Notes: a model not told the origin generated them from the sequence alone. Counted from the stretch's first letter, positions 1,113-58,128 are shown. The stretch: 64,000 nucleotides of DNA from Candidatus Marinacidobacterales bacterium (GCA_965237955.1 OZ250169.1:4000001-4064000), one strand, 5' to 3'. Program-made: numbers and translations.

Positions 1113-2175
1113 AGGCCGAGAGCTCGCTTGGCCCCGACTCCCATCATCCGATCATCTCGCTATCAGGCATCCCGAGCGCCGTCATCGTGTTGAGAATCTT
1201 GCACCCGATCCTTGCCCCGACTCTCTGTGCCGCCAACCCTCTCGCTCGCATCGCTGAGCCCACGATAGCCTTGTAGCGATGGAACGTTGTCTCGACTTTG
1301 CTCCGTTTGCTGTAGCCCGATTCTGTGTGCCACTTTCGTTTGCCGAGCCGAGCTTGTGCTGCAATGTTGCGATTGCGCTGTCGGCTGCTCGCCGGCCCCG
1401 ATGCGAGCTGGGCGCCCTTGCGCGGCGGTATCAGCACCCTCGGCGAGCAATGAGCGCTGTGATTCTCGATTGCCTCATAGACGCCGCCGGCGTCGTATGC
1501 GGTGTCAGCTCTGGCAGATGAGATGGGACTGTCGATCTGTCCGACAAGCGATGCAACCCGCGATGAATCGCGGGCTCTTTTGCTCGTCAGCTCGCCGGCG
1601 ACGACTTCGCCACTCTGCTCGTCGACACACAGATGGAGCTTGCGATAGTCCCTGCTCTTTGGTGCTCTGCGCAGCTGGCCGGCGTGGACAGCGAGACCGC
1701 TGCTGTCGATCAAGATGTGCAACGGCGTCTTCTGCTTGTCTTGGTAGAAGGGGACCTTACCCAGCTTCGCCTTGCGCCTCGAGATCGTGGTGTGATCGGG
1801 CACATCATTGTCTAGCTTCATCAGAGCGAACAACGATCGCAGCAATCCCTCGCTCTGCCTAGATGACAGATGAAACACCATGCCCAGGGTGACAGCCGTC
1901 TCGATGGCGTGGTTCGAGTACTTGCGTTGACGGCCCGGTTTCCTCCTCCTCGGCCGGGGCGCGTCCCAGTTCACAAGCTTGCCGGCGGTGAGCGAGATCC
2001 AGACGGTCAGGCTCCCACGGTTGCGTAGACCCGCCTCATATTCACGCCAATTCCTCACGCGATAGGCCTTCTTCACATACTTCCGCTGAGTGCGTTTGAA
2101 AATGCTCATGGGGAACCTCGAATCCGTGAGTAAAGGACAATTGTGGACCGAGATCGCGAGTTGTGCACCAAGGCA
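1089..2175 (-). mobile_element. IS5-family (IS903 group) element, full copy 2 (1087 bp)
   Basis: Terminal inverted repeats TGCCTTGGTGCACAACT / AGTTGTGCACCAAGGCA. No flanking direct repeat. Confidence 0.95.
1144..2109 (-). CDS. IS5-family DDE transposase
   Basis: 321 aa. IDSSG, YRKLHL, ADTAYD and YSKRSKVET motifs of IS903-like transposases. Confidence 0.95.
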   Translation of the reverse strand: MSIFKRTQRKYVKKAYRVRNWREYEAGLRNRGSLTVWISLTAGKLVNWDAPRPRRRKPGRQRKYSNHAIETAVTLGMVFHLSSRQSEGLLRSLFALMKLDNDVPDHTTISRRKAKLGKVPFYQDKQKTPLHILIDSSGLAVHAGQLRRAPKSRDYRKLHLCVDEQSGEVVAGELTSKRARDSSRVASLVGQIDSPISSARADTAYDAGGVYEAIENHSAHCSPRVLIPPRKGAQLASGPASSRQRNRNIAAQARLGKRKWHTESGYSKRSKVETTFHRYKAIVGSAMRARGLAAQRVGARIGCKILNTMTALGMPDSEMIG

Positions 2176-2267
2176 CCGGCTCGGTGGTGACCGCGGTCAG
2201 CTCGACAACGAAGAGCACCCGCTACCGCCGCCCGGACCGCAGCTCAAGTGCCCGGTATGCGTGAAGG

Positions 2268-10200: not shown

Positions 10201-11288
10201 TGCCTTGGTGCACAACTCCGATAGAGGCCCGAGAGCTCGCTTGGCCCCGACTCCCATCATCCGATCATCTCGCTATCAGGCATCCCGAGCGCCGTCATCG
10301 TGTTGAGAATCTTACACCCGATCCTTGCCTCGACTCTCTGTGCCGCCAACCCTCTCGCTCGCATCGCTGAGCCCACGATAGCCTTGTAGCGATGGAACGT
10401 TGTCTCGACTTTGCTCCGTTTGCTGTAGCCCGATTCTGTGTGCCACTTTCGTTTGCCGAGCCGAGCTTGTGCTGCAATGTTGCGATTGCGCTGTCGGCTG
10501 CTCGCCGGCCCCGATGCGAGCTGGGCGCCCTTGCGCGGCGGTATCAGCACCCTCGGCGAGCAATGAGCGCTGTGATTCTCGATCGCCTCATAGACGCCGC
10601 CGGCGTCGTATGCGGTGTCAGCTCTGGCCGATGAGATGGGACTGTCGATCTGTCCGACAAGCGATGCAACCCGCGATGAATCGCGGGCTCTTTTGCTCGT
10701 CAGCTCGCCGGCGACGACTTCGCCACTCTGCTCGTCGACACACAGATGGAGCTTGCGATAGTCCCTGCTCTTTGGTGCTCTGCGCAGCTGGCCGGCGTGG
10801 ACAGCGAGACCGCTGCTGTCGATCAAGATGTGCAACGGCGTCTTCTGCTTGTCTTGGTAGAAGGGGACCTTACCCAGCTTCGCCTTGCGCCTCGAGATCG
10901 TGGTGTGATCGGGCACATCATTGTCTAGCTTCATCAGAGCGAACAACGATCGCAGCAATCCCTCGCTCTGCCTAGATGACAGATGAAACACCATGCCCAG
11001 GGTGACAGCCGTCTCGATGGCGTGGTTCGAGTACTTGCGTTGACGGCCCGGTTTCCTCCTCCTCGGCCGGGGCGCGTCCCAGTTCACAAGCTTGCCGGCG
11101 GTGAGCGAGATCCAGACGGTCAGGCTCCCACGGTTGCGTAGACCCGCCTCATATTCACGCCAATTCCTCACGCGATAGGCCTTCTTCACATACTTCCGCT
11201 GAGTGCGTTTGAAAATGCTCATGGGGAACCTCGAATCCGTGAGTAAAGGACAATTGTGGACCGAGATCGCGAGTTGTGCACCAAGGCA
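10201..11288 (-). mobile_element. IS5-family (IS903 group) element, full copy 3
   Basis: Same terminal IRs as copy 2 and near-identical sequence. No target duplication. Confidence 0.95.
10257..11222 (-). CDS. IS5-family DDE transposase
   Basis: 321-aa protein from ATG 11222, essentially identical to the other copies. Confidence 0.95.
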   Translation of the reverse strand: MSIFKRTQRKYVKKAYRVRNWREYEAGLRNRGSLTVWISLTAGKLVNWDAPRPRRRKPGRQRKYSNHAIETAVTLGMVFHLSSRQSEGLLRSLFALMKLDNDVPDHTTISRRKAKLGKVPFYQDKQKTPLHILIDSSGLAVHAGQLRRAPKSRDYRKLHLCVDEQSGEVVAGELTSKRARDSSRVASLVGQIDSPISSARADTAYDAGGVYEAIENHSAHCSPRVLIPPRKGAQLASGPASSRQRNRNIAAQARLGKRKWHTESGYSKRSKVETTFHRYKAIVGSAMRARGLAAQRVEARIGCKILNTMTALGMPDSEMIG

Positions 11289-11372
11289 CCCCGCTACCGC
11301 TAACCCACACCTCCAGTTTTTATATGTCGCTCTCGAGGGAGGTTTCGCTGAGGGATTTCGTCTCCATCCCCT

Positions 11373-12667
11373 ATGGACACGGTGGCGGCCACGCCTGCCC
11401 TCGTCCCGCCAAGGGACGACTGTCCGCCCATGTATCGCCCGCGCAACCCGCACGCGAGCCCTCTATTCCAACTCTTCGAAACACACTACGAAACCGTCAA
11501 GACCGTCTGGGAAGAGCGATTCGAGCGCCAGTATGGATTTTGGCAAGACGCTGGGATCGTGCCGTGGCCGCTTACCTTGACTGTGGCTTGTTCGAATCCG
11601 GTTTCGCCCGCGTCCAGTGCCCGAACTGCAAAGTCGAGTTCCTCGTCGCCTTTTCGTGTCGGTGTCGGGGGCTTTGTCCATCGTGCAGCGCCAAGCGCGC
11701 CGCCATTTTCTCCGAGTTGCTGCAACACAAGATTCTCGCGGACATGCCTCACGCTCAATGGGTTTTCTCGATCCCAAAAATGTTGCGCCCCTACTTTCTC
11801 TACCATCAAGAGCTTCTAGGGGATCTCGCAAGACTCGCCTACGAGACCGTGCGTGAGACTGATGGCGGCCGCTGTCGAGGAGCCCGACGCGCGGCCGGGA
11901 ATGGTCGCCGTCATCCAGACCTTTGGGTCGTCGTTAAAATTCAATCCTCATATCCATGCGATCGTCACGCGTGGGGTCTTCCTCTCTAACGGACAGTGGC
12001 ATCCCATTCCCTACGTCGATGCCCACAAAGCCGAGCTTGTCTTTCGCCATAAGCTTCTCCGATTTCTACGAGACCGGACCTCATTTCCGAAGACCGCATC
12101 GACTTACTCTTATCTTGGCGCCATTCAGGTTTCAGCGTTCACAATCACACCACCGTCTATCCCAGCGACACTGAAGGGCTCCATCGCCTCGCTTGCTACT
12201 TGCACCGCGCCCCCGTGAACTTGTCCCGACTTCGCTATCATCCGGAATCCGGCATCCTTATTAATGAGCCCAAGCCCGGACACGATGTCGGCGACACCGA
12301 GCCTATCGACCCGCTCGAATTTCTCGCCCGAGTGCTCATCCACATCCCTGAGCCCAACAAGCATCTCGTCCATTTCTATGGCGCCTACGCCAACCGCGTT
12401 CGCTCCTCGACAACGCGTCTTTGCGACTCTGCGCAAAAGCAGGGAGAGGATCGACCGGCACCTACGCAACGCTCGGTGCGAAAACGATGGGCTGAGCTCA
12501 TTTACAAAATCTACGACGTCGACCCTTTGACCTGCCGATGCGGGGCCCAGATGAAGATCGTCGCTTTCGTCACTGAGCCCGCTTCCATTCGTCGTATTTT
12601 GGCGCACCGTAAGAACAACCCCTCGCGACAAAGAGCTCCTCCAAAGCCGACGCTCAACCTCCATTGA
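11373..12667 (+). pseudogene. IS91-family (Y2/HUH) transposase, frameshifted
   Basis: Consecutive frames give the zinc-binding CPNC..FSCRCRGLCPSC, the HUH motif NPHIHAIV, WRHSGFSVH, PLEFLARVLIHIP and C-terminal DPLTCxCG. Confidence 0.88.
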
Positions 12668-20812: not shown

Positions 20813-22528
20813 GCCTCTCCTGCCATTTCAGTGGATCCTCTCGAGGGTGAGACCGCCACAGTTTAGGTAGACGAGACTGATGAGAGCTTCGGCAGAGTGG
20901 AGTCCAAAGCTGCGGTGGCTCAGCAGCCGGATTTTGTTGTTCATTCCTTCGAGTCGGCCGTTGCTGAGTCTCCACGTGACCCACGCGATGACGCCATCGA
21001 AGTGGCTGCTCATCTTCGCCGCGCGTTTGACGGGCTCTATCCTCGAGCTCATAGCGCGCCGCAGCCATCCTCGGAGAAACTTCTTGGCCCATGTCTCGGT
21101 TTTGTAGGTGTAGAGGTCCATGAAGTTGTCGCGCAGAAGCATGGCGCGGTAGAGGCGACGATTAGCTCGCACCTGCTCGCGGAGCACCCGTTTGTCTTTC
21201 GCGCTGCGGTTGTGTTTGGCCTTGAGAAGGGGAAACTTGGTGTTCTTGAGGTTGCGCCGGGCAGTCCCTTTGAGCTCGCGCACCAGCTCGCGCCGGGTCT
21301 TATCCACGGCCTCGTTCAGATGCTTGACGATGTGGAAGCGGTCAAAGATCACCCGTGCCTGAGGAGCCTTTTTGCCGACGACAGTTATGTACGGCTCCCA
21401 CATGTCCATGCTGACCGCTTCGAGCTCCGCGGCTCTTTGTGGTCCGAGCTTGCGGAAAAACCGCAGCAGCGTCTTGGCCTTGCGCTCCTTTCCCGCCCAG
21501 ACGACCCGGCCGCTGAGATGGTCTATTACCACTGTTAAGTACTTGTGGCGTTTGCGGTAGCTGATCTCGTCCATCCCAATCACCCGCAATCCATCGAGCT
21601 CGCGCCGCTCATCCCGCTGCTCGGCAACCACTCGCTGGATGATCCGTCGCACCGAACGCCACGTCACTCGGAAATAGTTCGCTACGGCGCTGACGTCCGT
21701 CCTCTGTGCCAGCCACGCTACCTCTTGTTCGAAGCTTTTGGTAAAGCGGCTTCCCTTGTCGGCCCAAGGCACCTTTTCTCTGACCACTCCACACCGCCGA
21801 CATACCACTCGTCGGATCGAGTAGCGAAGATAGGTCCGGACTCCGAACAGGTCCAAGTGCCGCCAGTAGCGATTGTAGCGATCTTTGTTCTTGCGGACCT
21901 TTCGTCCGCAAATCCCGCACAGAGGCTTCCTCCTCCGTGGTACTACATCCACCACCACTCTGGCTTTGTCCGCCTGGAAGTGGAAACCTCGGACCCACAG
22001 GCCTTGCAATCCGATGAGCTTGTTGACTAACGTAGTAACGCGCATCGCGGGAACGCTCTTTTCTCTTTCGGAAAAAAAGATTCTAGCGTTCTCGCCGATG
22101 CGCATCTACACATGGCTTACCCTCTCAACCCACGGGCCTCACCAAATGCCACTGCCCCTCAGCGGGAGACAAGGCTGTGGGAAACGCCCCCACGGTTCTG
22201 GTCGTTCAGACCTTGCTCACGACTGAGTTCTCTTCGAAGCCTGGAAGGGCGTTTTCCATAGCCTCCACTAATCGAGCCCCCCCTTCCTTATTCCATATGA
22301 ATTAATCTTTCTTGTATATATATCAGGAGGGGCCTGTGGGCGCTCGTGGGAAACGCGAAGCGTTTCCCAAGCGATTGTGGAAAACGCCGCTCCACGTTTG
22401 TACGTGCTCACAACCTTTCCCTAAACGCCTCTCTCGCCCGGAGTTTCCGGCGTTTTCCACAATCGCGGCAGCGTCCATAGGCCATGCCCTCCAACACAAA
22501 TCAGATCCCCCGAAACGACAGGAGAACC
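20813..22528 (-). mobile_element. ISL3-family element
   Basis: Imperfect IRs GCCTCTCCTGCCATTTCAGTGGATC / GGTTCTCCTGTCGTTTCGGGGGATC. 8-bp TSD GTTTTTAA at 20805-20812 and 22529-22536. Confidence 0.93.
20828..22045 (-). CDS. ISL3-family transposase
   Basis: CGICG and CRRCG zinc finger, IGMDE, SMDMW, DRFHIV and SNGRLEGMNNKI motifs. Confidence 0.93.
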   Translation of the reverse strand: MRVTTLVNKLIGLQGLWVRGFHFQADKARVVVDVVPRRRKPLCGICGRKVRKNKDRYNRYWRHLDLFGVRTYLRYSIRRVVCRRCGVVREKVPWADKGSRFTKSFEQEVAWLAQRTDVSAVANYFRVTWRSVRRIIQRVVAEQRDERRELDGLRVIGMDEISYRKRHKYLTVVIDHLSGRVVWAGKERKAKTLLRFFRKLGPQRAAELEAVSMDMWEPYITVVGKKAPQARVIFDRFHIVKHLNEAVDKTRRELVRELKGTARRNLKNTKFPLLKAKHNRSAKDKRVLREQVRANRRLYRAMLLRDNFMDLYTYKTETWAKKFLRGWLRRAMSSRIEPVKRAAKMSSHFDGVIAWVTWRLSNGRLEGMNNKIRLLSHRSFGLHSAEALISLVYLNCGGLTLERIH

Positions 22529-22719
22529 GTTTTTAATTCATCCTGGGAATCTCTGGAACAATACAAGTGTCCAGAGTGGTTCCGCGATGCGAAATTCGGG
22601 ATTCAGTCACAATGGAGTGGTTACGTAGTGCCTGAAACCGGCGATTGGTATGCCCGCAATATGTATATCCAGGGAAGCAGGCAGTACAAATACCATCTGG
22701 AGAATTACGGACACCCGTC

Positions 22720-24164
22720 GGAGGTGCCCCCACCATAGTTGAAGGTTCGAGGTGGTGGCGGCTCCTGACACATGGTTTACCCGACTTTGGCGTGCTTGTC
22801 GAGCGCTTGATTCTCAGTGACCTCCGCTAACTTCGCTTCGAGGATCGGTAGCGATTGGTATCCAATGATACGACGGAAATTTTTCTCCGTGGCGAGCAGA
22901 GCCGAAGCGGCCCATCTCAGAACCATCTTGCCATTGCGCCAGCGGGTGACGCGACGGGTACGACCTCGCGCACCGCTGAAGCACGACTCGATGATGTTCG
23001 TCGATCCAAGGCAGCGTTTCAGAGATGCGGGGAGGTCGAGCTCGTTGATGGTGAACATCTCGTCGAGCCCCTCCCGGATGCTCTCCGCCGCCGAGGGGTA
23101 GTCGTCCTCGAGCCACTTCGCCTGTTGCTCCAACCGCGCTTTGCCCTTCTTTGCTGGGAGCTGCCAGGCCGAACGCAGGCTCGCTTGCACTTGCGGCTTC
23201 AGCTCCTGCGGCAGATAACCGAGCACATTGCGCTCCTTGTGCTTCCTGCAACGCTGGACCTTGTTGTGGGTACCGAACACAGCGTCGACGGCGACCCGTA
23301 GCGCCTTGGAGCCATCGATCACGAACAGCCGACACCGCTCTGGGCTCAGGCCTCGTTCGACCAGGTCCTCCAGCAGCGCCTTGCACACTATCTGGTTCTC
23401 CGATGCTCCATCCCGAAGCCCCAGAACATGCTTGTATCCCTCTGTATCTACGCCGATTGCCGCCAGCGCGTGGTGCTCGCCGAAGCGAATCCCGTCCAGG
23501 TACACGACCGCGATCTCCAGCTCGTCCAGCGGACGCTCCATCAGCCCCTGCAACTGCTCCGCGCTTGCTTCCACGAACTCACGGCTCACCTCGCTCTTGC
23601 TAACCCCTACCGTCTCCGCCATCTCGGGAAGAACCGACGCGTACTTGCGCGTCGACACACCCAGCATCAGGATTTCCCAGATGCGTTGGCTCAGCCGAGA
23701 CGAGTTGTTCACCGCTTCGTAGGCAGGAATCGCAACCTCCCCTCCCTCTGCCTTTCCCTTACGCCGCAGACGTGGCCGGCTCACTCTCAACTTCCGCTCC
23801 GCAAGGCTTACTACGCCACCCTGCCGGCCGTGCCAGCGAACATCGCTACCCTTCTTCCCCGGGTGTTTCTCCCCAGCCACACTTTTGGCTGACAGATCCA
23901 AGACCGCTTCGATCGTCGCTCGGCCAGCAACGTCGATCACTTCGTCGATCGCTATCTCGGTTCGCTCAATCGCATCCAAGAACGGCAACAGAGCTTGCCC
24001 CTTCGAGCTCAGTATCTCTCGAAGCTTCTTCCTGTTCTTCGCATCGATGATTTGGTAATTTGACATCGTGGTGGCTCCTTTCTTTTTCCTTCACAGCCGG
24101 ATTCTATCGAACCCGGCCTTAGGAGCCGCCACTCCTAACCTTCAACTATCTCAGGGGCATCTCC
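22720..24164 (-). mobile_element. IS256-family element
   Basis: IRs GGAGGTGCCCCCACCATAGTTGAAGGTT / GGAGATGCCCCTGAGATAGTTGAAGGTT. 8-bp TSD CACCCGTC at 22712-22719 and 24165-24172. Confidence 0.94.
22777..24066 (-). CDS. IS256-family (Mutator-like) transposase
   Basis: GVSTRK, YLDG, GYKHVLG, IDGSKAL, QRCxxH and STNIIES motifs. Confidence 0.94.
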   Translation of the reverse strand: MSNYQIIDAKNRKKLREILSSKGQALLPFLDAIERTEIAIDEVIDVAGRATIEAVLDLSAKSVAGEKHPGKKGSDVRWHGRQGGVVSLAERKLRVSRPRLRRKGKAEGGEVAIPAYEAVNNSSRLSQRIWEILMLGVSTRKYASVLPEMAETVGVSKSEVSREFVEASAEQLQGLMERPLDELEIAVVYLDGIRFGEHHALAAIGVDTEGYKHVLGLRDGASENQIVCKALLEDLVERGLSPERCRLFVIDGSKALRVAVDAVFGTHNKVQRCRKHKERNVLGYLPQELKPQVQASLRSAWQLPAKKGKARLEQQAKWLEDDYPSAAESIREGLDEMFTINELDLPASLKRCLGSTNIIESCFSGARGRTRRVTRWRNGKMVLRWAASALLATEKNFRRIIGYQSLPILEAKLAEVTENQALDKHAKVG

Positions 24165-24293
24165 CACCCGTCCAAATTCGGATATAAGGATGTCATAGAG
24201 CTTTGGAAGGCCGATAAGTTTCATCCCGACAGCCTGGTAGCCCTCTTTAAAGAGGCCGGGGCAAAATACATTGTGTCATTAGCCGCACACCAC

Positions 24294-25380
24294 TGCCTTG
24301 GTGCACAACTCGCGATCTCGGTCCACAATTGTCCTTTACTCACGGATTCGAGGTTCCCCATGAGCATTTTCAAACGCACTCAGCGGAAGTATGTGAAGAA
24401 GGCCTATCGCGTGAGGAATTGGCGTGAATATGAGGCGGGTCTACGCAACCGTGGGAGCCTGACCGTCTGGATCTCGCTCACCGCCGGCAAGCTTGTGAAC
24501 TGGGACGCGCCCCGGCCGAGGAGGAGGAAACCGGGCCGTCAACGCAAGTACTCGAACCACGCCATCGAGACGGCTGTCACCCTGGGCATGGTGTTTCATC
24601 TGTCATCTAGGCAGAGCGAGGGATTGCTGCGATCGTTGTTCGCTCTGATGAAGCTAGACAATGATGTGCCCGATCACACCACGATCTCGAGGCGCAAGGC
24701 GAAGCTGGGTAAGGTCCCCTTCTACCAAGACAAGCAGAAGACGCCGTTGCACATCTTGATCGACAGCAGCGGTCTCGCTGTCCACGCCGGCCAGCTGCGC
24801 AGAGCACCAAAGAGCAGGGACTATCGCAAGCTCCATCTGTGTGTCGACGAGCAGAGTGGCGAAGTCGTCGCCGGCGAGCTGACGAGCAAAAGAGCCCGCG
24901 ATTCATCGCGGGTTGCATCGCTTGTCGGACAGATCGACAGTCCCATCTCATCGGCCAGAGCTGACACCGCATACGACGCCGGCGGCGTCTATGAGGCAAT
25001 CGAGAATCACAGCGCTCATTGCTCGCCGAGGGTGCTGATACCGCCGCGCAAGGGCGCCCAGCTCGCATCGGGGCCGGCGAGCAGCCGACAGCGCAATCGC
25101 AACATTGCAGCACAAGCTCGGCTCGGCAAACGAAAGTGGCACACAGAATCGGGCTACAGCAAACGGAGCAAAGTCGAGACAACGTTCCATCGCTACAAGG
25201 CTATCGTGGGCTCAGCGATGCGAGCGAGAGGGTTGGCGGCACAGAGAGTCGAGGCAAGGATCGGGTGCAAGATTCTCAACACCATGACGGCGCTCGGGAT
25301 GCCTGATAGCGAGATGATCGGATGATGGGAGTCGGGGCCAAGCGAGCTCTCGGCCTCTATCGGAGTTGTGCACCAAGGCA
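24294..25380 (+). mobile_element. IS5-family (IS903 group) element, full copy 4
   Basis: Same terminal IRs, 1087 bp. No target duplication; the two flanks belong to unrelated genes. Confidence 0.95.
24360..25325 (+). CDS. IS5-family DDE transposase
   Basis: 321-aa protein matching the other copies. Confidence 0.95.
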   Translation: MSIFKRTQRKYVKKAYRVRNWREYEAGLRNRGSLTVWISLTAGKLVNWDAPRPRRRKPGRQRKYSNHAIETAVTLGMVFHLSSRQSEGLLRSLFALMKLDNDVPDHTTISRRKAKLGKVPFYQDKQKTPLHILIDSSGLAVHAGQLRRAPKSRDYRKLHLCVDEQSGEVVAGELTSKRARDSSRVASLVGQIDSPISSARADTAYDAGGVYEAIENHSAHCSPRVLIPPRKGAQLASGPASSRQRNRNIAAQARLGKRKWHTESGYSKRSKVETTFHRYKAIVGSAMRARGLAAQRVEARIGCKILNTMTALGMPDSEMIG

Positions 25381-43077: not shown

Positions 43078-43206
43078 AGCGCCCTATTGTAGCGCTGTCG
43101 GAACGCCGTGTCCCAGAATCGAACAGCGCACATCCGGTGCTGTGGACAAGACCGTTCGGCGGTGGGTGTTTCGGGCTGGCCCAGAACCTGCACTAGAATC
43201 ATTATT

Positions 43207-43590
43207 ATGCTGCACGATCTCCGCCATGCCCTTCGCTCCCTGACACACGCGCTCGGGTTCACGACCGCGGCGCTTTCGACTCTCGCCCTCGGCATCGGAG
43301 CGACCACCGTCGTTTTCAGCCTCGTCAATGGCCTGTTGCTTCGACCGCTCCCGTTCGGAGACGGATCGCACCGTGTCATCTCGCTGCACGGAACGCACCC
43401 GACTCAATTTCCCGAAGATTGGGACGACGCCGGAGTGTCGTACGCAGACCTTCTGGACGTGCGCCGGGAGAGGTCGGCTCGCGTACGCGAGCCGGGTGAG
43501 GGGGCGCTGCCGAAGCCTGCTTCGACTCTGAATCCCACGACGGCGATCTCCCCGCGCCGCACGATCCTCAAGAGCAAACGCTTGAGATAA
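43207..43590 (+). pseudogene. MacB-like / ADOP ABC permease, N-terminal fragment
   Basis: DLRHALRSL..GFT..TLALGIGATTVVFSLVNGLLLRPLPF; similarity is lost after about 90 codons. Confidence 0.75.
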
Positions 43591-46505: not shown

Positions 46506-48440
46506 TTAGTGATCGAGCGCCGCGAGGGCGTCGCCGAGCTCCGCCGCCGTCTGGAAGCGCTCTCCGGGATCCTTCGCCAGGCAGCGAAGAATGAGGCTCG
46601 ACAACTCATCCGGTACACCCGGCCGGACCTCTCCCGGGTTGGGAGGATCGACTTCGAGGTGCATTCTTTCGACTTCATTGATGTAGTCGCCGTTGAACGG
46701 CCGGCGCCCGGTGACCATTTCGAACACGACGATCCCGAGGGAATACAGGTCCGAGCGCTCGTCGACGCTCTCACCTCGGATTTGCTCCGGCGAGGCGTAC
46801 ACCGGCGTACCGACGAACCTGCCGTGGCGTGTTATCTCGGGCCCGTCGACGAGACGGGCCAAACCGAAGTCCGTGATCCGAGGCTCGCCGTGCTCATCGA
46901 TGAGAATATTGGACGGTTTGATGTCGCGATGGATGACGTTAGCGCCGTGAGCGGCCGCCAACGCGGCCGCGAGCTTGGCCCCGAGCAAAACCGCCCTTTC
47001 GAAGGTGAAGGGCGCTTCTTTCGAGATGACCTCGGCGAGGTCGGGGCCATCCACGAACTGCATGGTGACGTACTTCTGACCGTTGTCGTCACCGAGATGA
47101 TAGGTCTTGAGAACGTTCGGGTGGGTGAGGTCTCGAGACAAGAGCACTTCGCGGCGCAGCCGGACGGCGGCGTCTCCATCGGTGCTGTATTCGCGCTTGA
47201 GAAGCTTGATCGCGATGTCGGTCCGGAGCAAAGTGTCGCGCGCCTTGTACACTTCACCGGCGGCGCCTTGTCCCAGGCGACTGAGTAGCTCGTAGCGCCC
47301 GTCGACGCAGCGCGGAGCGTCGGCCGAAACCGATTCCTGGCGCGTAGCTTCATCGATCGTCGTTCGCGGCAGGTTGCCGTCTGGACGGTGGGCACGTTGA
47401 ACGCTCGGTAGCTCGCTGAACCACCGTTTGAAGAAGAAATTCGCGAGCGCATAACCGCCACCAGGTGCACGGTGAATGAAGCCGAGATGTTCCAGCCGCG
47501 ACAGATCACCGTTCAGCACGGACGACTCCACCGCGAGAATGTTCCCGATGGAATCGGTCGTCGACTCTCTCCGTGCACTGACGATGCGGATGATATTGCG
47601 CTCGGTCTCGCTCAGCATCTCGAAATCGACGGCGAAGAAATGCCGAACCATCTGGTCAGCGGCAATCTCCTCGATCGCCTTATCGAGGTCTCCGAGCTCC
47701 ATGTATCGCTCGCACACGAGCTGGAGGAGGTAGGGATGGTTGTTGCAGCGTTCTCGGATCGTTTCGATGGTACGCTCGTCGACATCTGGCCGAGAATCCT
47801 CGGGGAGGTGCGACTGGCGGATCAGAGACCGTGCGGCGTCGTCCTCGAGCCCGAAGACGTAATGCGGCGGTGTGAAACCATGAAGAAATGGCGACGTGCT
47901 CGTGTCTTCGTTCGCGAGCTCCCACAGCTTGATCTTGGACGCCAGGACGGTGCGGATGTTCTCTGCCGATTGCAGGGCCCGCCGCAGACGACGCAAGAAC
48001 CGGGGCTCGCGCTCGTTGATGGTGATGAGCTCTTCCACTTCGTCACCGAGAAGCAGAAGCGTAAGCTCACGCGAGCGAAGCTCGCGGCGGAGGCGATTGA
48101 TGGACTCGAACAGATCGTCGGCCTCGACGCGCTCGAGCGGAACGCCGATGTCTTCGAGACGGTCCATCGCGTCGAGGAGCGAGTCGCTCAGGCTCTCGTG
48201 GAGATCTTCCGGCTTCTCTGCACCTTGGAAGTCCCAGAACAACGGGAAGTAACCGAGCTCCGCCGAAAGTGACGTCCGTCGCTCCAGCTCTTTGAGTGTG
48301 GACGTTTTGCCAACCCTGCGAGTGCCTAGAAGCCAAAGACAGTTTCGATTGCCGTGAAGAATGTCTTGGATGAGCTCGTTCCGTCCGTAGAAGCTATCCC
48401 CACGAACCCACTGGCCGACAACGTAGGGCGTCACCGACAT
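46506..48440 (-). CDS. STAND/AAA-type ATPase fused to C-terminal Hanks-type Ser/Thr kinase
   Basis: PYVVG..FYGR, Walker A GTRRVGKTS, Walker B LLGDE and HPYLLQ; kinase motifs GQGAAG, AIK, HRDIKPSN, DFG, SPE and DLYSLG. Confidence 0.88.
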   Translation of the reverse strand: MSVTPYVVGQWVRGDSFYGRNELIQDILHGNRNCLWLLGTRRVGKTSTLKELERRTSLSAELGYFPLFWDFQGAEKPEDLHESLSDSLLDAMDRLEDIGVPLERVEADDLFESINRLRRELRSRELTLLLLGDEVEELITINEREPRFLRRLRRALQSAENIRTVLASKIKLWELANEDTSTSPFLHGFTPPHYVFGLEDDAARSLIRQSHLPEDSRPDVDERTIETIRERCNNHPYLLQLVCERYMELGDLDKAIEEIAADQMVRHFFAVDFEMLSETERNIIRIVSARRESTTDSIGNILAVESSVLNGDLSRLEHLGFIHRAPGGGYALANFFFKRWFSELPSVQRAHRPDGNLPRTTIDEATRQESVSADAPRCVDGRYELLSRLGQGAAGEVYKARDTLLRTDIAIKLLKREYSTDGDAAVRLRREVLLSRDLTHPNVLKTYHLGDDNGQKYVTMQFVDGPDLAEVISKEAPFTFERAVLLGAKLAAALAAAHGANVIHRDIKPSNILIDEHGEPRITDFGLARLVDGPEITRHGRFVGTPVYASPEQIRGESVDERSDLYSLGIVVFEMVTGRRPFNGDYINEVERMHLEVDPPNPGEVRPGVPDELSSLILRCLAKDPGERFQTAAELGDALAALDH

Positions 48441-48443
48441 GCT

Positions 48444-50819
48444 CTAGAGCCCCTCCGGCTGGCAGACGGTCTCGAGATCCGTCAACGTGAAGCTCCGCCG
48501 CTGCTCCTCGTGGCCTCGATCCACGAGCGCACAGCAGATCCTCTGGATGAGATAGGGCTTGCAGCTGGTCCGCCGGAGGATCTCGTCCACAACACCGTCC
48601 GCGAACGTAAAAACGCCCTTGACCGGCGCCTCGATGAGTGCAGCTGCCTCTTTTCGATCCAGCGGCTAGACCTCGATCTCCTGGAAGAAGTTGTACCAGG
48701 GGCTGCCTTCTCGCTCCCATTGTTTTTTGATCGCCACGCCGGAAACGACCGAGACGAGACTGTCCGCGAACGTTCTCATGAACAAACTGCGTAGCTTTTG
48801 GTTGACACGGGGGTCGTAGTCGTTCAGCTCGTCGACTTCATCGATCAACAATGCGAGCTTGATACGCTTGGTCGAGCCGTTTTTCAAGGCTTTGACCACA
48901 CCGTGGAGATCCTTCACGAACTCGCGGTAGCCGTACATGTCCTCGTCGAGCGACGGATGGGGCTCGAGACCGCCCAAGCGAGGTTGAAGCTCGTCGAAAA
49001 TCTAGGTTGCGAGCGTGGCGAAGAATTTGTCCTCGGGCGTTCCCTGATCGATGAAAACCGGATAGAAGACGTGGTCGGGATCATCGAGCGTGGTCAAACA
49101 CTTCTTCAGCTGGTGCTGGAACGACGTCTTACCGATACGTCGCTCACCGTACAGAAGAATGCTGTTGTTGTAAACTCTCCGCAAGACGTGGTCCAGCAAC
49201 TGTTCGCGTCCAAAAAATCTCTTTTGCTCCAGAATCGGAGCGCCGGCGACATAAGGATTGAAACGCCTTCGCAGAAGCTGCCGGCGACGGTGGGCCTTGG
49301 TGCCGACAAGCCCGAAGCCGAGACAAATCAACGCGGCACCGATCGACGCGGGAAACCACAACGACCTCGAGAACGGGACGACGTACTCGACCGAGTACGC
49401 TTCTTGCGTCGATTTGCCCCCTTGATCGACCGCAACGAGCTCGAGCGTAGAAACACCCGGAGGGAGCTCGTGCTGGAATCTGAATTCGGTAATCCAAACA
49501 CCCAAAAACTCTCTGCTGTGGACGCTCGTCTTCCCGACTTCCTCGTCCGCGCTTCGGATCGAAAGCTCGACCGGAGTGTTGTCGTACACGGTCCCGGTGA
49601 GGACGAACTCGGGTGAGCGGATCACTTCGACGCGGGCTCCGTCAACTCTATCCACGCGCACATCGTCGAACAGAATCGAAGGAGGTGCGTTGTCGATCGC
49701 CAGCAACGCATCGCTGAGCCCGGCGTACGCTCGCGCGATATGCCGTAGCGCGCCTTCGTGGTCAGGCGCCAGAGCCAACACCCGGTTGGCGCTTCTCAAC
49801 GCCTGCTCGAAGTTGCGAGCCTCGAGCTCGCGTTCCGCTCGGCTCAGTAGAGTCTGAACTCTATCGCCCTGGTCAGCCGCAGCTTGCATCGCAAGAATGC
49901 GTTCCTGCTGGCGGCGGGCCTCCACGTTTCGCGGATCGGCAGCGAGCACGTGCTGCAACTCACTCAGAGATTGCTCCAGCTCGCCGGCGACCTCGAGCTC
50001 AGCCGCGCGCTCGAGACTCTCGCGGACGAGACGTCGGTTCTCTGGTTCGTCCGCCCCGGCGAGAATACCTTCCTGGGCCTGTGTCAGAAGAGCTAACGTA
50101 TCCGCATCGCGACGAAGATCGAGCGCGCGGGTGAAGCTCAGCGCCGCTTCTCGATAGTCTCTCGACGCCAAGCTCGCTCGCCCCTGCTCCAACAACCTGG
50201 CGACCCGCTCGCCGGCTTCTTGCTGGCGTTGCCGGGCGGCGACGGCAGCGAGCACACGCCGCCGCAACTGCTGAGCGTCTTCGAGCTCGGGCGCCACCGC
50301 GATTACTTTCGCGATCGCATCGAGAGCTTGGTCGAAGCGGCCCTGCCCCTCTAGGCGCCGCGCCTCCCGGAGATTCTCGGCAACGACTTCCTCGGCGCGG
50401 AGTCGTCGTGCATCCTCCGCCTCTGCTTTGGCCTCCAGGATGGCATCTCGGTAGCTTTGGAGCTCCGCATAGTCTTTTGCGGAGCTCTGAATCTCGCCTT
50501 GACGCTCCTCGGTCTCGAAAGCTTGTAATGCGGCGTCTGCCTGGCCGAGACGTTCGTAAGCAACACCAAGCTTCAGAAACGGAAAGTACGCGATGAACCG
50601 CATGCCGTAGGTACGGGCCCGTGCGGCCGAGCCGGGCTTTTGCTGCACCGCATCGTTGAGATGGCGGATCGCCTCGCTCCAGTTCTCGTCTTCGAGAGCC
50701 TCCTCGGCCCGATGATAAGACTCGAACCACGTTTGCGCGAAAACTCGAGGAGCACGAGCGAACACCAACGCGAACGCGAGGGCGGAGACCAAGGCGAGGA
50801 AGCGCCATTGACTCTGCAC
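48444..50819 (-). pseudogene. Signal peptide-TPR-Ig-like-TM-STAND ATPase protein; frameshift near 49003 and TAG at 48666-48668
   Basis: TPR-like helices, beta-rich domain, TM (WFPASIGAALICLGFGLVG), NPYVAG..FFGR, GERRIGKTS, LLIDEVD, SPWYN and KPYLIQ across frames. Confidence 0.78.
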
Positions 50820-50829
50820 CGAGACCTCG

Positions 50830-52138
50830 TCAGAACCTGTAGACGATCGAGACCGACAACAGATCCGCCGTGTCCGACAGATCGAACCCGACGTCGAACT
50901 GGACGTGGTTGAATACGACGCCCACTCCCGCAGCAATATGGATGTCGTCAGCTCCTCCGTCGAAGACGGCACGCTCGAACAGATCGGCATCTGGACCAGA
51001 ATCGAGGCCATGAGCCGGGTCACGCCAACGCACCGAAACGGAGCGCGAACACCTGCTGGGCCGCTTGAAACACATACTCCGTTCCGAAGTGAAGCTCGTC
51101 CCCATCGGACAGCTCGATTTGACCGGGATCGAAGACGTTGGTGTCGAGGCTCTCGGTGATTGACGAGTACCGGACTCGGTCCCACTCGAAGCTGAACGTC
51201 AAAGCTCCGTCTAGCATACGGAACGCGGCGCCGAGACCGTAAACGGAGGGCAAGCGGAGGGGAGTGGTGACGTCCAGCTCCACCGTACCTTCCAGAGCTT
51301 CATCGTTGGCCGGACCCACAATCTCGGTTACCTCCACCGTCAACTCCGGTCCCTCGCGAAAGTATCCGCCGAACGACCATTGAGGGTTGGGGCGCCACGA
51401 GAATCCCCCGTGGAATGTGAACCCTGAGTCGCTTCCACCGAGCGTATAGCTCGTGTCGAGCAGCTCGGGGTCGCGCGGGTTGGACGCAAAGAAATCTTCG
51501 TCTTCGACAGCGAACTCTTGCGACCGCGAGTCCATTCGCGCCTGAAAGTAGACGAGGCCGCCACCGACACTCAGGCCGTCGGTGAGCTCGTAGGCTCCGA
51601 CGAAGCCGTTGTTGGTAACGTCGAGGTCGGTCGTGGCAAGAATGTCCTCGGAGCGCTCGAGCTCACCGTCGATGACGCCGAAAAGACTATCGATCTGTCG
51701 CGACACCGCGAAGTTGGCCCATCGATGCCGGTACACCGCAACCGACCAGCCGTCGCCCAGGTAGACGAATGATAAGTAGGAGAGTCCGTTGACCGTGCTC
51801 GAGGACACGCCGTAGCGGAGTCCGCCGGCGGTATCGATACCGATCCCTGTCGGAGTCCCCGACGTACGTCCTCCCGCGACGAACGGGATGTCATACGACC
51901 ACGAGCGTCCTTCGAGCGAGACTTCGGGCTCGATGAGATGGACCAAGCCGGCCGGATTGGCGAAGGCTGCCGTCGCATCGTCTGCCAATGCGGCGAAAGC
52001 GCCGCCCAAACCCATGCTCCGCGCCCCTGGATTCGAGAAGCTGAACTCGAACGTGACAGGTCCTTCCTGGCTGGTCGCCGGAACAGCAAGTAACAGCACG
52101 CACGCCAGCAGACAGAGAGAACAGCCAGTTCTTCTCAT
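50830..52138 (-). CDS. FadL/TodX-like outer-membrane beta-barrel; frameshift near 51025
   Basis: Signal peptide, NPGARSMGLGGAF..LADDATAAFANPAGL, alternating beta strands and a C-terminal ...IVYRF barrel signal in the adjacent frame. Confidence 0.8.
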
Positions 52139-52902: not shown

Positions 52903-55900
52903 ATGAGAATCAGACGGAGATCCGTGCGCGCGCTTGCCGCCATCGTGGTGTTACACGTCGGGGTGGTAGCGACGAGCTACGCCCAAATCGTCGAGCTCAT
53001 GTCGAAAGCGGATTCCGGGACGATATCCGAGACCCCGGGAGGCAATAGCTCCCCGCACGGGATCAGCGCCGACGGACGCTACCTGGTCTTCGAAAGCGAC
53101 GCCGTCAACCTCGTGCCAGGCCAAATCGACTCGAACTTCGGACCTGATGTTTTCCTCTATGACCGCATCACCGGAGGGACGACTCTCGTGAGTCAACACT
53201 ACGGGCAACGACACGTCGGCGCTCGCCAGCATCAGCGCCGACGGGGCGTTCGTCCTGTTCCAGAGCGACGCGGACGATCTCGTCACCGGTATGGTGGACA
53301 CCAACGGCGCGTCCGATATGTTCTTGTTCGAGCGCGCCACGGGGATGGTCACGCTCCTGAGCCACCGGGCGGGCTCTCCACTGACCACGGGCGACGCCAG
53401 TTCCAATTTCCCTCTGTTCCCTCCGGCGCTCACGTCTCTTTTGAGCGCCGATGGAAGCTACGCGGTGTTCGTCAGCTGGGCAACGGATCTCGTCGCGGGA
53501 CAAATCGACGTGAACGGAGGCACCGACGTCTTCGTCTTCGAGCGAGCCACCGGCATGATTAGCCTCGTGAGTCACGTGCCCGCATCGCTCACGACGACAT
53601 CCGATGGGGGCTCCTACAGTCCTCGCATCAGCGCGGATGGAGCATACGTTGCGTTCACGAGCTCGGGTTTCGACCTCGTCCCGGGTCAGGTCGACCTCGT
53701 GATCGATGACGTCTTTCTCTACGAACGCGCGAGCGGACTCGTCACCCTCGTGAGCCACATTCCGGCCAGTCCAGTGACAACGGCCGACGGCGATTCGTTC
53801 GGCGCTCACATAACCGCCGACGGTTCGTTGGTCGTTTTCATCAGCTTCGGCAACGATCTCGTGGCGGGCCAGACCGATTTCAACTTCGGTGAGGACGTCT
53901 TCCTGTTCGAGCGCGCGACGGGAACGGTGACGCTCGTGAGTCATGTTCCGGCAGACAACACCCAGACCGGAGACAGCTTCTCGGGGTTCAACGCCTATCC
54001 GCGTGGACTCGCGATCAGCCCCGGCGGTGACTTCGTTGGATTCCTGAGCCGGGCGAACGATTTGGTCGTCGGCCAAATCGACGCCAACGGACAAAACGAC
54101 GTGTTCCGCTACGAGCGTGCGAGCGGAACGATCGAGCTCGTAAGCGCCATCCCTGGGACGACGACGGACACGTCGTTTTTCGAGTCGTTCGAGCTTTCGA
54201 TGAGCGACGACGGGGAACGCATCGCGTTTGTCAGCGTGGGCGACGATCTCGTGGCGGGCCAAGTCGACACCAACGCTGTGAACGACGTCTTCTTGCGAGA
54301 TCGTGCGGAACCACGACGCTAGTGAGCCACACGATAGGCGCCGCGACCGCGGCGGCCGACAACATCTCGGAAAAAGCGCTCATGAGCGCCGCCGGCGCCT
54401 ACATTACTTATGGGAGCAATGCATCGGACCTCGTCAGCGGGCTCGCCGATTCGAACAATCGCCCCGACGTCTTTGTCCATGAAACAGCATCCGGGAACAA
54501 CGACATCGTGTCTCGCATCGACGTCGGCTCTCCCTCCGGAAGCGCAAACGGGGGAAGCTCCACCGATCCCGGCCGGGACTGGATGAGCGCAGACGGCAGG
54601 TACTCTCTGTTCGTGAGCGCCGCCACGAACCTCGTCGCCGGACAAGTGGACACCAATAATGCGAGCGACTTGTTTCTCTACGTTCGGCTCACCCAGGCCG
54701 TCACCTTGGTCAGTCACGCCGCCGGGGCACCCAACGTCACCGGCGATCGCTTCTCCGACCTCGCCAACGTGAGCGACGACGGGAATTGGGTCGTCTTTCG
54801 AAGCGGCGCGACGAACCTCGTCCCCGGACAGATCGAGGGGAATACGTCGTCGGATGCGTTCCTGTTCGAGCGCGCGACGGGCAACATCACCCTCTTGAGC
54901 CATCCCCCGGGACTGCCGACCACGACCGGCAACCTCGGTTCCGGCGTCCCGTCGGTCAGCGCCGACGGGACGTGGGTGTCGTTCTCGAGCTTCGCGTCGG
55001 ATCTCATCCCCGCCGACACCAACGGCACCAACGACGTGTTCTTGTTCCAAAGAGCGACCGGCAACGTGACCCTCGTGAGTCATATTCAGGGAGCGCCGGG
55101 AACGCCCGCGAACAACTTCTCGAGTGACAACCACATCAGCAAGGACGGAAATTGGGTTACGTTCGAAAGCCGCTCGACCAATATCGTCACCGGCCAGATC
55201 GATACCAACGGGGGCGACGACGCCTTCCTGTTCCACCGACCCACCGGTGTCGTCTCGCTCGTGAGTCGCGCCGCGGGCACGGTGACGACGACCGGAAACG
55301 GAATTTCGTCAAGGCCCAGGATCAGCTTCGATGGATCCTTCGTCGAATTCAGAAGCGCGGCGACGAACGTCGTTGTCGGGCAAGTGGACACGAACGGAGC
55401 GGACGACCTCTTTGTGTTCGACCGGGGTCTCGCGACGACGAGCATCATCAGCCACCAGGTGGGGGCCGCGACAACGACAGGAAGCTTCGACTCGCTCTTT
55501 TTCGCGATGAGCGACGACGCTTCGTACATTGCGTTCACGAGCCGCGCGACCGACCTCGTCGCCGGGCAGGTGTCGGTTTTTGGCGACGACATTTTTGTTT
55601 ACGAGCGGGCGACGGGTCTGAACACCCTCGTCAGCCACGAAGCGGGCACCCCGGCGACCGAGGGAAACCAAGCGTCCGACACATCCGTCATCAGCGGCGA
55701 TGGGAACTGGATCGCGTTTAGAAGCTCGGCGACCAACCTCGCTTTCGGACAGATGGATACCAACAATTCCCCAGACGCATTTCTGCACGATCGCGTTGCG
55801 GGAACGACAAGTGTCGTGAGCTTGAAGGCCGCCACCACGGCCACGACGGGGAACAAGTTCGCCGACGGCACGGTGCTCGGCGGTAACGGCGACTACGTGG

Positions 55901-58128
55901 CGTTTCGCTCGCAGGCCACCGACCTCGTGCCCGATGATTTCAACGGGAACAACGACGCATTTCTCTATAGGCGCACGACGCAAGCATCGGATCTCACGGT
56001 GATCAAAGACGACGGTCAAACGACCGCGGTACCGGGTGAGCCGATCGCGTATCTCATCACCGTGACCAACAACGGACCGGCCGCTCTGACGAGCCTTACT
56101 CTTACCGACACCGTGCCACCGGAAATCCTCACGCCGGTGTTCACTCCCTCAGCCGGCGTTTATGACAGCGGGACCGGTGCTTGGACCGGCATCACTCTGC
56201 CTCCCGCCGGATCGATCACCATGACCCTCGCCGGCACCGTCGACCCGGCGGCGCGGGGAACGCTGGCAAACTCGGTCACGGTAGCGCCGCCCCCGCCCAT
56301 CGTCGATCCGTTGCCAGGCAACAACGTCGCCGTCGACTCGGACGTCCTGACGCCGGAAGCGGACATGGAGATCACGAAGACCGACAGTCCCGATCCGGTC
56401 ACCTCCGGCTCCACGCTGACGTACACGTTGACGGTGGTCAACAACGGTCCTTCGGAAGCGACCGGCATCGTCGTCACCGACGCGCTCCCGCCGGTGACGT
56501 TTCTCTCCTCGGTCCCGGGCGCTCCGACGTGCAACTACGCGGCGGGAACGGTGACGTGCAATATGGGGAGTCTCCCGCCGACGTGGAGCACGATCGTCAC
56601 CATCGACGTCCTCGCGAATTTCGCCGGCCTATCGAACGCGGCCAACGTGACCGCGGTCGAGACCGACCCTGACACAAGCAACAACATCGACAGCGAGGGC
56701 ACCGTCGTCAACATCCCGAGCGACGCGGTGCGTTTCTTCACCGCGAAAGCGACCACGGGTCAGAACCGGCTCGAGTGGTTGAACCCCACGCCGGTTGATT
56801 ACGTCGCGACCCACATCGTGGCGAACACGACACGCTTTCCTGCAAACGAGACCGACGGCACCGTGATCGTCAACGGCGGTACCGCGGGCGCGAAGGAGAT
56901 CTTCGATCACACGGGGCTCATCGACAACACCGTGTACTACTACGGAGCGTTCGTGGAGCGTCTTTCCGTCTTCACCGCCGGCAAGTTCACCAGCGGACGA
57001 CCGTTCGACGACTCGGGACCGGTCAAGTGGGCGTTCACGACCGGAGCTGCGTCGATGGCGCCGCCGAGCCTCGGGTCTGTTTACGCCGCTTCGAACGATC
57101 GCGTTTTGTACTCGATGACGCCCGGACCCACCGGAGGCGACTGGCCCATCGGGTGGACGCCGTTCGAAGCGCCCGAGCCGGCTCAGTCTCGCGCGCCGGT
57201 CGTACCCGTCACCGTTGGCGGTGCGAGCAAGGTCGTATTCCTCGGCGCGCAAGACGGGCAGGTGTATGCTGTCGACGCCGATACCGGCACCCTCGTGTGG
57301 CCGAGCCCGATGCTCGGCGATCGCGTCCAAGCCGCACCGGCCGGGATGTTCACCACGTTCGGTGGAGCCTATGATCTCATCCTCGTCGGAAGCCGGAACT
57401 CGTCGACCGACAACATCTTTTATGGTCTCGGCCTCGGCACTGGGTCGGTCTCGTGGATGTTCGACAACCTCAGCGGCACCGGCGGGATCGGCATCATCAG
57501 CGGAGGGGCCTCGGTCGACTACGCGAACGATCGTGTCTATTTCGCCAGTCGCAATCGAGGCGGTGGAAGTCCGAGCACGCTCTGGTGTCTCGATTTCGAT
57601 GGCGCGAGCGCGACACTCCGATGGGAGCGCGACCTCGGCAATATCGACGGAAGCCCTATCCTGATCGGCGGGAAAATCTATGTCGGCACGAATGCCAGCG
57701 AAGTACACGCTCTCGATGCCGACGACGGCAGCGACCTTTGGGGTGCTCCGTACGATGCCGGTGACGGTCCGATCAAGAGCTTTATCTGGCCCATATGGGG
57801 GGACAACGAGCTCTTTTTCTCCACGACGAACAACGTGTGGTCGATTGCCGATGATGGAACCGACGCATCGCTCAACTGGCAGGAAGGCTCCATACCTTCC
57901 CCGTCGACGCCGCTCTTTTTCCAAGGCGTCGACCTTCTGTTCGTCGGCTCGAGCGACGGCCAACTGTATCAACTCGATGTCTCGGGGCCGACGCCGATGA
58001 TTACCTCGGTGGCGCTAGGAGACGGCGGCGGAGCGGGCGGAAGCCCATCTCTCGACGGCGCACGCAATATCGTCTACATCGGAACCGACGCCGGCATTCT
58101 CTACGCGGTCGAAATCCCACTACCCTGA
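52903..58128 (+). CDS. Very large secreted protein: TolB-like propeller repeats, two DUF11 domains and PQQ-type propeller; split by frameshifts near 53200 and 54315
   Basis: Signal peptide; many SADGxxVxF.S.AxDLVxGQxDxNxxxDVFxxERATG repeats in all three ORFs; DLxxxK..YxxTVxNNGP twice; C-terminal PQQ-like repeats. Confidence 0.8.

Follow-up and report, generated by a model that had tools for sequence, protein, structure and literature searches.

The three-gene locus and the state of this copy

A 64,000-nucleotide stretch of DNA from Candidatus Marinacidobacterales bacterium (GCA_965237955.1 OZ250169.1:4000001-4064000; the window, with positions counted from its first letter) carries on its minus strand three tightly packed, co-oriented genes at 52138-50830, 50819-48444 (GTG start) and 48440-46506, separated by 10 and 3 bp. 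The source genome is a single 8.13-Mb contig and 98% complete. An earlier interpretation of the window made without database searches (the sequence-only reading) had proposed a trans-envelope system here, built from a FadL-like barrel, a receptor with tetratricopeptide repeats (TPRs), an immunoglobulin-like (Ig) domain, a transmembrane (TM) helix and a STAND ATPase, and a second STAND ATPase fused to a Ser/Thr kinase. The coordinates confirm its gene order and spacing, its domain calls were upheld by Pfam, hydropathy, structure models and fold search, and every motif that it quoted was found in genes 2 and 3, along with the catalytic motifs of the kinase. Together with its homologues, this triad is a real and conserved module, probably for signalling and apparently undescribed. 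The layout proposed for the window stood, but genes 1 and 2 are not open: they carry a frameshift, two TAG codons and a lost Leu codon. The features of the triad are as follows.

50830..52138, minus strand: gene 1, outer-membrane barrel of FadL fold with 14 strands, a signal peptide and a conserved hatch at the N-terminus; pseudogene
48444..50819, minus strand: gene 2, receptor-ATPase; pseudogene
50439..50738, minus strand: TPRN, the conserved periplasmic N-terminal TPR domain of gene 2, with a beta-hairpin insert and the motifs W..Y..A..AL and TYG...Y.P.L.LG.A
49371..49700 (limits approximate), minus strand: periplasmic Ig-like beta-sandwich of gene 2 (beta-strands 381-479 in the model of homologue P0002)
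49305..49361, minus strand: single TM helix of gene 2, followed by a basic RRR stretch (hydropathy and alignment)
48447..49270, minus strand: ATPase 1 of gene 2, Cdc6/Orc1-like AAA+ fold without a winged helix after the lid (Foldseek, VIA-align, motif consensus)
46506..48440, minus strand: gene 3, soluble ATPase 2 fused to a Ser/Thr kinase (kinase at ~46548-47294); open frame

Gene 1 matches Pfam Toluene_X/FadL at 34 bits (cut-off 29.7), and the model of an intact homologue (predicted local distance difference test, pLDDT, 93) is a 14-stranded FadL fold, for which Foldseek placed BamG and FadL level at the top (E about 1e-18). It has the structural marks of the FadL/TodX family, whose channels carry hydrophobic solutes through a lateral opening, namely 14 strands, an N-terminal hatch, an NPA motif (conserved as NPAG) and a Pfam score above cut-off. 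The hatch, with the motif PGARS..G.GGAF..ADDATA..NPAG, is the conserved part of the barrel (0.82). Membership of the PorV family was not supported, as NCBIfam PorV_fam reached 30 bits against a cut-off of 90 and matched the hatch only. The 14 strands, hatch and NPA motif are likewise what gene 1 shares with FadL/TodX, BamG and PorV as a group (PDB 1t16, 9hiv; available parts of PMC12578637), from which it differs by having only 11–17% identity, a score below the PorV cut-off and, in the loci read, linkage to a receptor gene instead of beta-oxidation, BAM or type IX secretion genes.

Gene 2 encodes, in order, a signal peptide, the TPRN domain, further TPR repeats, the Ig-like domain, one TM helix and the cytoplasmic ATPase 1, with the motifs NPYVAG..FFGR, GERRIGKTS (Walker A) and LLIDEVD (Walker B LLIDE). 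Gene 3 combines PYVVG..FYGR, GTRRVGKTS (Walker A) and LGDE (Walker B) and a winged helix in ATPase 2 with the kinase motifs HRDIKPSN and DFG. Hydropathy gave a signal peptide and one TM helix in gene 2 and none in gene 3, and Pfam recognised TPR repeats in gene 2 and Pkinase (179 bits) in gene 3; for the ATPases of both genes, Pfam families matched only weakly and below cut-off, in the neighbourhood of PF01637/AAA_35. The closest solved folds of ATPase 1 were found with Foldseek and VIA-align to be Cdc6/Orc1 (Z 18.4; against archaeal ORC2, rmsd 3.1 over 251 aligned residues) and PABY2304 (Z 15.4), while a sequence search of the PDB with ATPase 2 gave no significant match. Both ATPases retain Walker A and B in their consensus (GxxxxGKTS, hhhhDE). 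STAND NTPases have a helical domain with a GxP motif and then a winged helix; at the motif's position the consensus reads kPyl in ATPase 1 and nHPyl in ATPase 2, with no Gly, and a helix-turn-helix follows ATPase 2, whereas ATPase 1 stops after the lid. A Cdc6/Orc1-related AAA+ P-loop with Walker A and B fits the STAND label, but the architecture is not NLR-type: C-terminal cytoplasmic sensor repeats are absent, and in contrast to the NLR/Avs layout with its N-terminal effector the TPRs are N-terminal and periplasmic and the outputs mostly C-terminal.

Four lesions interrupt genes 1 and 2, the three with fixed positions being:

51023..51027, minus strand: +1 frameshift in gene 1 that removes the last three barrel strands
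49002..49004, minus strand: in-frame TAG in gene 2, where aligned homologues have E or D
48666..48668, minus strand: second in-frame TAG in gene 2, where aligned homologues have Q, K, R or E

The fourth is the absence from gene 2, near 49045 and ~40 bp upstream of the TAG at 49002-49004, of the invariant Leu codon of DLQG. The frameshift near 51027 cuts off homologue residues 348-412, which are the last three strands in the barrel model, and on its two sides gene 1 is 73% and 69% identical to the intact homologue of locus L037. We compared the lesions, through contigs, across four sequencing runs from three samples and two studies, where X1 is possibly the source sample, X2 belongs to the other study and X4 is from the same sample as X2. 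Contigs of X1 and X2 cover all four lesions with zero differences, a contig of X5 runs through three of the four without a gap, and X4 contains a variant that is intact at three of the four sites, having neither the first TAG nor the codon loss nor the frameshift. Since runs of two studies carry the lesions and a co-occurring variant lacks three of them, they are real mutations and not assembly errors, which answers the read check suggested earlier for positions 48666, 49003 and 51025. Genes 1 and 2 of this copy are non-functional pseudogenes; the frame of gene 3 is open.

That the TAGs are read through or are sequencing errors, leaving a functional copy or even one long fusion of genes 2 and 3, is extremely improbable, although three TAGs between 49004 and 48444 are in frame with gene 3 and each is preceded by C. 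Homologues differ in the residue at two of these stops and terminate at the third, a tRNA with a CUA anticodon is absent among the 55 tRNA genes found, and the frameshift and the lost invariant codon accompany the TAGs. Sequencing error is countered by the same letters in the runs of the other study and by the existence of the intact variant, and a fusion, more weakly, by the absence of a fused homologue among longer proteins. A split gene is also not unusual here: this genome has 53 near-complete kinase loci, of which 7 are likewise split. TAG recoding and the fusion were accordingly rejected on the tRNA, run-contig and alignment evidence and the lack of a fused homologue.

Intact copies exist elsewhere: the nearest gene 2 homologue, P0002, is 93% identical, and locus L038 is another intact copy of the system. 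Both sister barrel loci in this genome are broken too. Several transposase-like open reading frames (ORFs), with three copies of one family (window 1147-2196, 10260-11462 and 20831-25322), fit an insertion-sequence-rich genome with many broken genes.

Conservation of the triad and its outputs

Gene 2 homologues numbered 386 among 7995 scored candidates, and most of the 120 listed span 96–100% of gene 2, whose best conserved parts are the ATPase (0.76) and TPRN (0.73). In a GTDB scan 400 stretches were confirmed, and the counts rest on 80 kept loci, mostly from Acidobacteriota classes and Woeseiaceae. An ATPase-2 gene is present in 77/80 and a barrel gene in 57/80; ATPase 2 lies directly downstream of gene 2 and co-oriented with it in 66/80. 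Considering the 43 well-flanked loci (at least 6 kb on both sides), ATPase 2 was found in all 43 and the barrel in 36, in variable order. In a set of 40 relatives, each of the 8 that match ATPase 1 strongly gives a strong match to the barrel as well. Two further relatives hold barrels: in one the barrel neighbours a degenerate ATPase locus, and the other has stops in its copy (this tally takes in the unpublished genome G027, which has a weak match only). Several copies in relatives are fragmented as well, as judged from assemblies alone. The predicted triad is thus conserved and recurs in many uncultured bacteria, its genes co-occurring in the GTDB loci far beyond chance, as the neighbourhood comparison suggested by the sequence-only reading required.

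The output attached to ATPase 2 is variable. Our tally of 103 ATPase-2 ORFs gave a kinase in 41 (one of them a frameshifted mixed call), no output in 21, an N-terminal winged helix in 19, a winged helix with TM tail in 8, an extracytoplasmic function (ECF) sigma factor in 5 and a TM tail only in 1, with 8 cut by contig ends. The winged-helix output is Trans_reg_C/CadC-like, and the ECF output passes TIGR02999 at 198 bits (cut-off 126). The kinase catalytic loop is kept in 37/37 ATPase-2 fusions. Some loci place one receptor beside two or three ATPase-2 genes that bear different outputs. Among the ATPase-2 ORFs read, none had an output recognisable as a nuclease, a TIR domain or a pore-former. 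The kinase that had been put forward as the end of the pathway is present in the window but is only one of several outputs. The alternatives are transcription factors, and the end point would be transcription; as predicted from their domains, the swapped outputs point to gene regulation rather than cell death. ECF groups that are regulated by kinases and have no anti-sigma factor are known (available parts of PMC7826278). In nine Woeseiaceae/Gammaproteobacteria loci (L051, L053, L056, L058, L059, L062, L069, L076, L111) the receptor is separated from a divergent winged-helix-ATPase gene by a DUF5666 lipoprotein-like gene, a candidate regulated target.

The TPRN domain outside the triad

Elsewhere in this genome gene 2 is matched only over its first 100 residues, the TPRN domain, by two genes. 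All three TPRN genes of the genome sit directly behind a barrel gene, and the other two barrels are divergent from that of the triad. The second locus (L117:6835-10682; G000:C1 about 1323800-1327700) consists of barrel and TPRN followed by PEGA-PEGA-TM-Ser/Thr kinase and is frameshifted; a similar locus occurs in genome G017 (L130). The third (L118:7280-11159; G000:C1 about 4491300-4495200) encodes a barrel and a receptor of TPRN and TPR-Ig-TM-histidine kinase, both split. Contigs of X1 and X5, two runs of one study, cross the split in the histidine-kinase gene without any change, and a receptor of this type is intact in genome G009 (L127), though the barrel gene there is interrupted.

TPRN corresponds to no Pfam family beyond generic TPR, and an Atlas search yielded nothing but TPR clusters that are unnamed or generic. 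Its profile matched 91/401 Acidobacteriota genomes and 4093 representatives at E<=0.001. Across the 401 genomes of the phylum, TPRN is present in 78/85 with a barrel match at ~E<=1e-20 versus 13/316 without one, and at a barrel cut-off of 1e-10 in 84/139 with and 7/262 without; the counts take in two unpublished genomes without TPRN, G186 and G063, and related genomes in them are not independent. Of 60 TPRN loci, hand-picked from 150 matches listed, 24 have a barrel as direct neighbour and 30 have one within 6 kb. Many TPRN proteins are soluble adaptors beside a kinase gene. Judged by these matches, the predicted TPRN domain is a wider constant than the ATPase pair, being shared with barrel modules that have no ATPase.

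Two barrel-free or kinase-rich arrangements recurred. Eight loci (L132, L133, L135, L138, L145, L149, L156, L163) are barrel-free operons of a PP2C phosphatase, a Ser/Thr kinase and a soluble TPRN protein, and in these operons the soluble protein has a conserved C-terminal TPR that ends in an SP(R/K)I-type motif. Seven others (L139, L146, L153, L165, L167, L173, L178) form a conserved cluster of a trypsin-like protease, two kinases and a TPRN adaptor, most of them with a penicillin-binding protein.

A proposed signal route and its alternatives

Signals from the outer membrane reach the cytoplasm mostly via TonB-dependent receptors, Rcs or sigma-E relays, or histidine kinases. In cell-surface signalling of the FecA-FecR-FecI type, a TonB-dependent barrel acts through a single-pass inner-membrane relay, which is the anti-sigma factor, on an ECF sigma factor. 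The triad resembles this system in its outer-membrane barrel and single-pass relay, and in the ECF sigma output of only 5/103 ATPase-2 ORFs. It differs in having a FadL-fold barrel that is not TonB-dependent, a TPR-Ig receptor with an ATPase and no FecR match, and a sigma factor fused to an ATPase.

Paired STAND ATPases have precedents. According to work by Leipe and colleagues in 2004, the Npun2340/2341 pair is reportedly made by neighbouring genes and joined to signalling domains, and this family is not known to include an outer-membrane barrel or a periplasmic TPR-Ig receptor. The triad shares with it two related ATPases in adjacent genes, which are co-oriented in 66/80 triad loci, and, by weak Pfam matches, the PF01637/AAA_35 neighbourhood. 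This family of paired MNS-clade STAND NTPases is named in the available part of PMC8195603, as is the nSTAND2 operon, where two adjacent STAND-type ATPases, one with a variable output, are predicted to form a hetero-multimer. That operon is like the triad in its two adjacent ATPases, but in nSTAND2 one of the two is inactive and GT4 or HEPN serves as output, whereas both ATPases of the triad keep Walker A and B with no eroded motif, one of them is a membrane receptor, and the outputs seen are kinases or transcription factors, with no GT4 or HEPN. The archaeal Cdc6/Orc1 and PABY2304/SSO1545 proteins (PDB 1w5t, 2qen, 2fna), the closest solved folds of ATPase 1, are soluble, while ATPase 1 has no winged helix and sits on a membrane receptor. 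As paired STAND operons are already known (nSTAND2; Npun2340/2341), the new part is the barrel-TPR input.

The layout of barrel, TPR receptor and paired ATPases was not found described in the literature searched, although supplements, which lay outside the search, may list the clade. It is not described in the available parts of PMC7159879, PMC8195603, PMC13581612, PMC7826278 and PMC12578637, and searches on nSTAND6 and on FadL/TPR/kinase combinations turned up nothing relevant, in agreement with the initial impression that no named system has this layout.

We infer that the module probably relays a signal across the envelope to gene regulation, from barrel to TPR to ATPases to output. The barrel would hold or admit a cue, to be read by the receptor's periplasmic TPR end through contact with the barrel. 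This signal would drive clustering of the receptor, so that its ATPase could nucleate an ATP-dependent mixed oligomer with the sister ATPase and switch it on. The fused kinase, or whichever output the partner ATPase carries, would then be activated by proximity; the kinase would act on gene regulators, whose transcriptional targets are probably secreted or surface proteins. Domains, topology signals, nucleotide-binding motifs, gene linkage, output swapping and the reuse of barrel and TPR, all observed from sequence, support this route. If it is correct, a FadL-fold barrel feeding a receptor ATPase with a choice of sister-ATPase outputs would be a new relay logic, and paired STAND-like ATPases would be at work in everyday regulation rather than immunity.

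One shared domain, TPRN, also links two modules inside one genome. A broader proposal, which we hold possible with the balance tipping slightly against it, is that FadL-fold barrel and TPRN form a general envelope-spanning plug-in receptor across Acidobacteriota, which could feed a Ser/Thr kinase, a histidine kinase or a switch made of two ATPases. In the latter, a membrane receptor ATPase would recruit interchangeable ATPase-kinase, ATPase-sigma and ATPase-transcription-factor partners. Cell-surface signalling would then have a TonB-independent class in which ATPases replace anti-sigma factors or phosphotransfer, in an abundant, poorly studied phylum with TPRN in 91/401 of its genomes searched.

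Several observations weigh against the barrel as the point of signal entry, a role that linkage otherwise favours. The barrel lies directly upstream on the same strand in only 10/43 well-flanked loci, and no barrel occurs inside the flanks in 7/43. The periplasmic turns of the barrel (0.36-0.53) are no better conserved than its outer loops (0.40-0.56), and both the co-divergence of barrel and TPRN (rho 0.55) and the genome counts are inflated by kinship. TPRN may instead be a general kinase-linked periplasmic domain, because half of the 60 TPRN loci are without a nearby barrel and stand mostly beside a kinase, often with PP2C. In addition, barrels of the FadL fold also serve as subunits that bind proteins, and BamG heads the fold matches. 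BamG and PorV are FadL homologues with protein-binding roles (available parts of PMC12578637), so the fold can bind proteins instead of passing solutes.

In an alternative that we consider unlikely, the receptor-ATPase pair is a regulatory system by itself that senses something in the periplasm, and the barrel does not start the signal but is either a co-regulated target or a PorV/BamG-like handler of secreted surface proteins. Barrel order and strand do vary and barrels are often duplicated, but the barrel stays beside TPRN when the cytoplasmic part is a kinase or a histidine kinase, and beside soluble TPRN adaptors too. A handler would fit the BamG match, the protein binding of BamG and PorV (available parts of PMC12578637) and the weak PorV_fam match in the hatch. 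It would also fit the secreted repeat proteins and subtilases (FG-GAP, Calx-beta, DUF5666, RHS, SdrD, S8) found in 17/39 loci versus 2/20 control regions, a class chosen after seeing the data, among related genomes and with unequal cut-offs (ORFs tested: 116 + 61 of 284, and 85 of 141 in controls, where two regions gave no ORFs). However, no single C-terminal sorting signal is common to the 31 neighbouring secreted proteins compared, 4 of which end GFE[ST]G-type and 3 related ones AVPAVP. The secreted neighbours do hint, as far as gene content goes, that targets or cargo may be surface proteins.

It is more improbable still that the triad is an NLR-like anti-phage or conflict system in which the barrel or the periplasmic TPRs would recognise an invader and the ATPase pair would set off a toxic kinase. 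The two-gene nSTAND2 operons are predicted conflict systems (available part of PMC8195603), the kinase domain matches PADLOC PD-T4-6 models, and the system is patchy and often broken. Yet this kinase match is domain-generic, with no PADLOC match for gene 2 or the barrel, and the sensor end is conserved and not hypervariable. The alternative outputs are transcription factors, none of the ATPase-2 ORFs read having a recognisable nuclease, TIR or pore-forming domain, and plausible defence genes (restriction-modification or similar) occurred in 2–3 of 18 loci (118 of 284 selected ORFs, no control). The relay from barrel to transcription remains the reading we prefer.

Some further features were seen around these loci. 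Neighbouring secreted proteins at L064, L085, L100 and L110 carry at their C-terminal end a motif of the D(G/D)FE(S/T)(G/S) type that may be a sorting signal. Within the window, one or more large secreted beta-propeller/DUF11/PQQ-like proteins are encoded at 52903-58128, divergent from the triad and with a frameshift near 53200, and an apparently truncated ABC permease-like gene fragment lies at 43108-43590.

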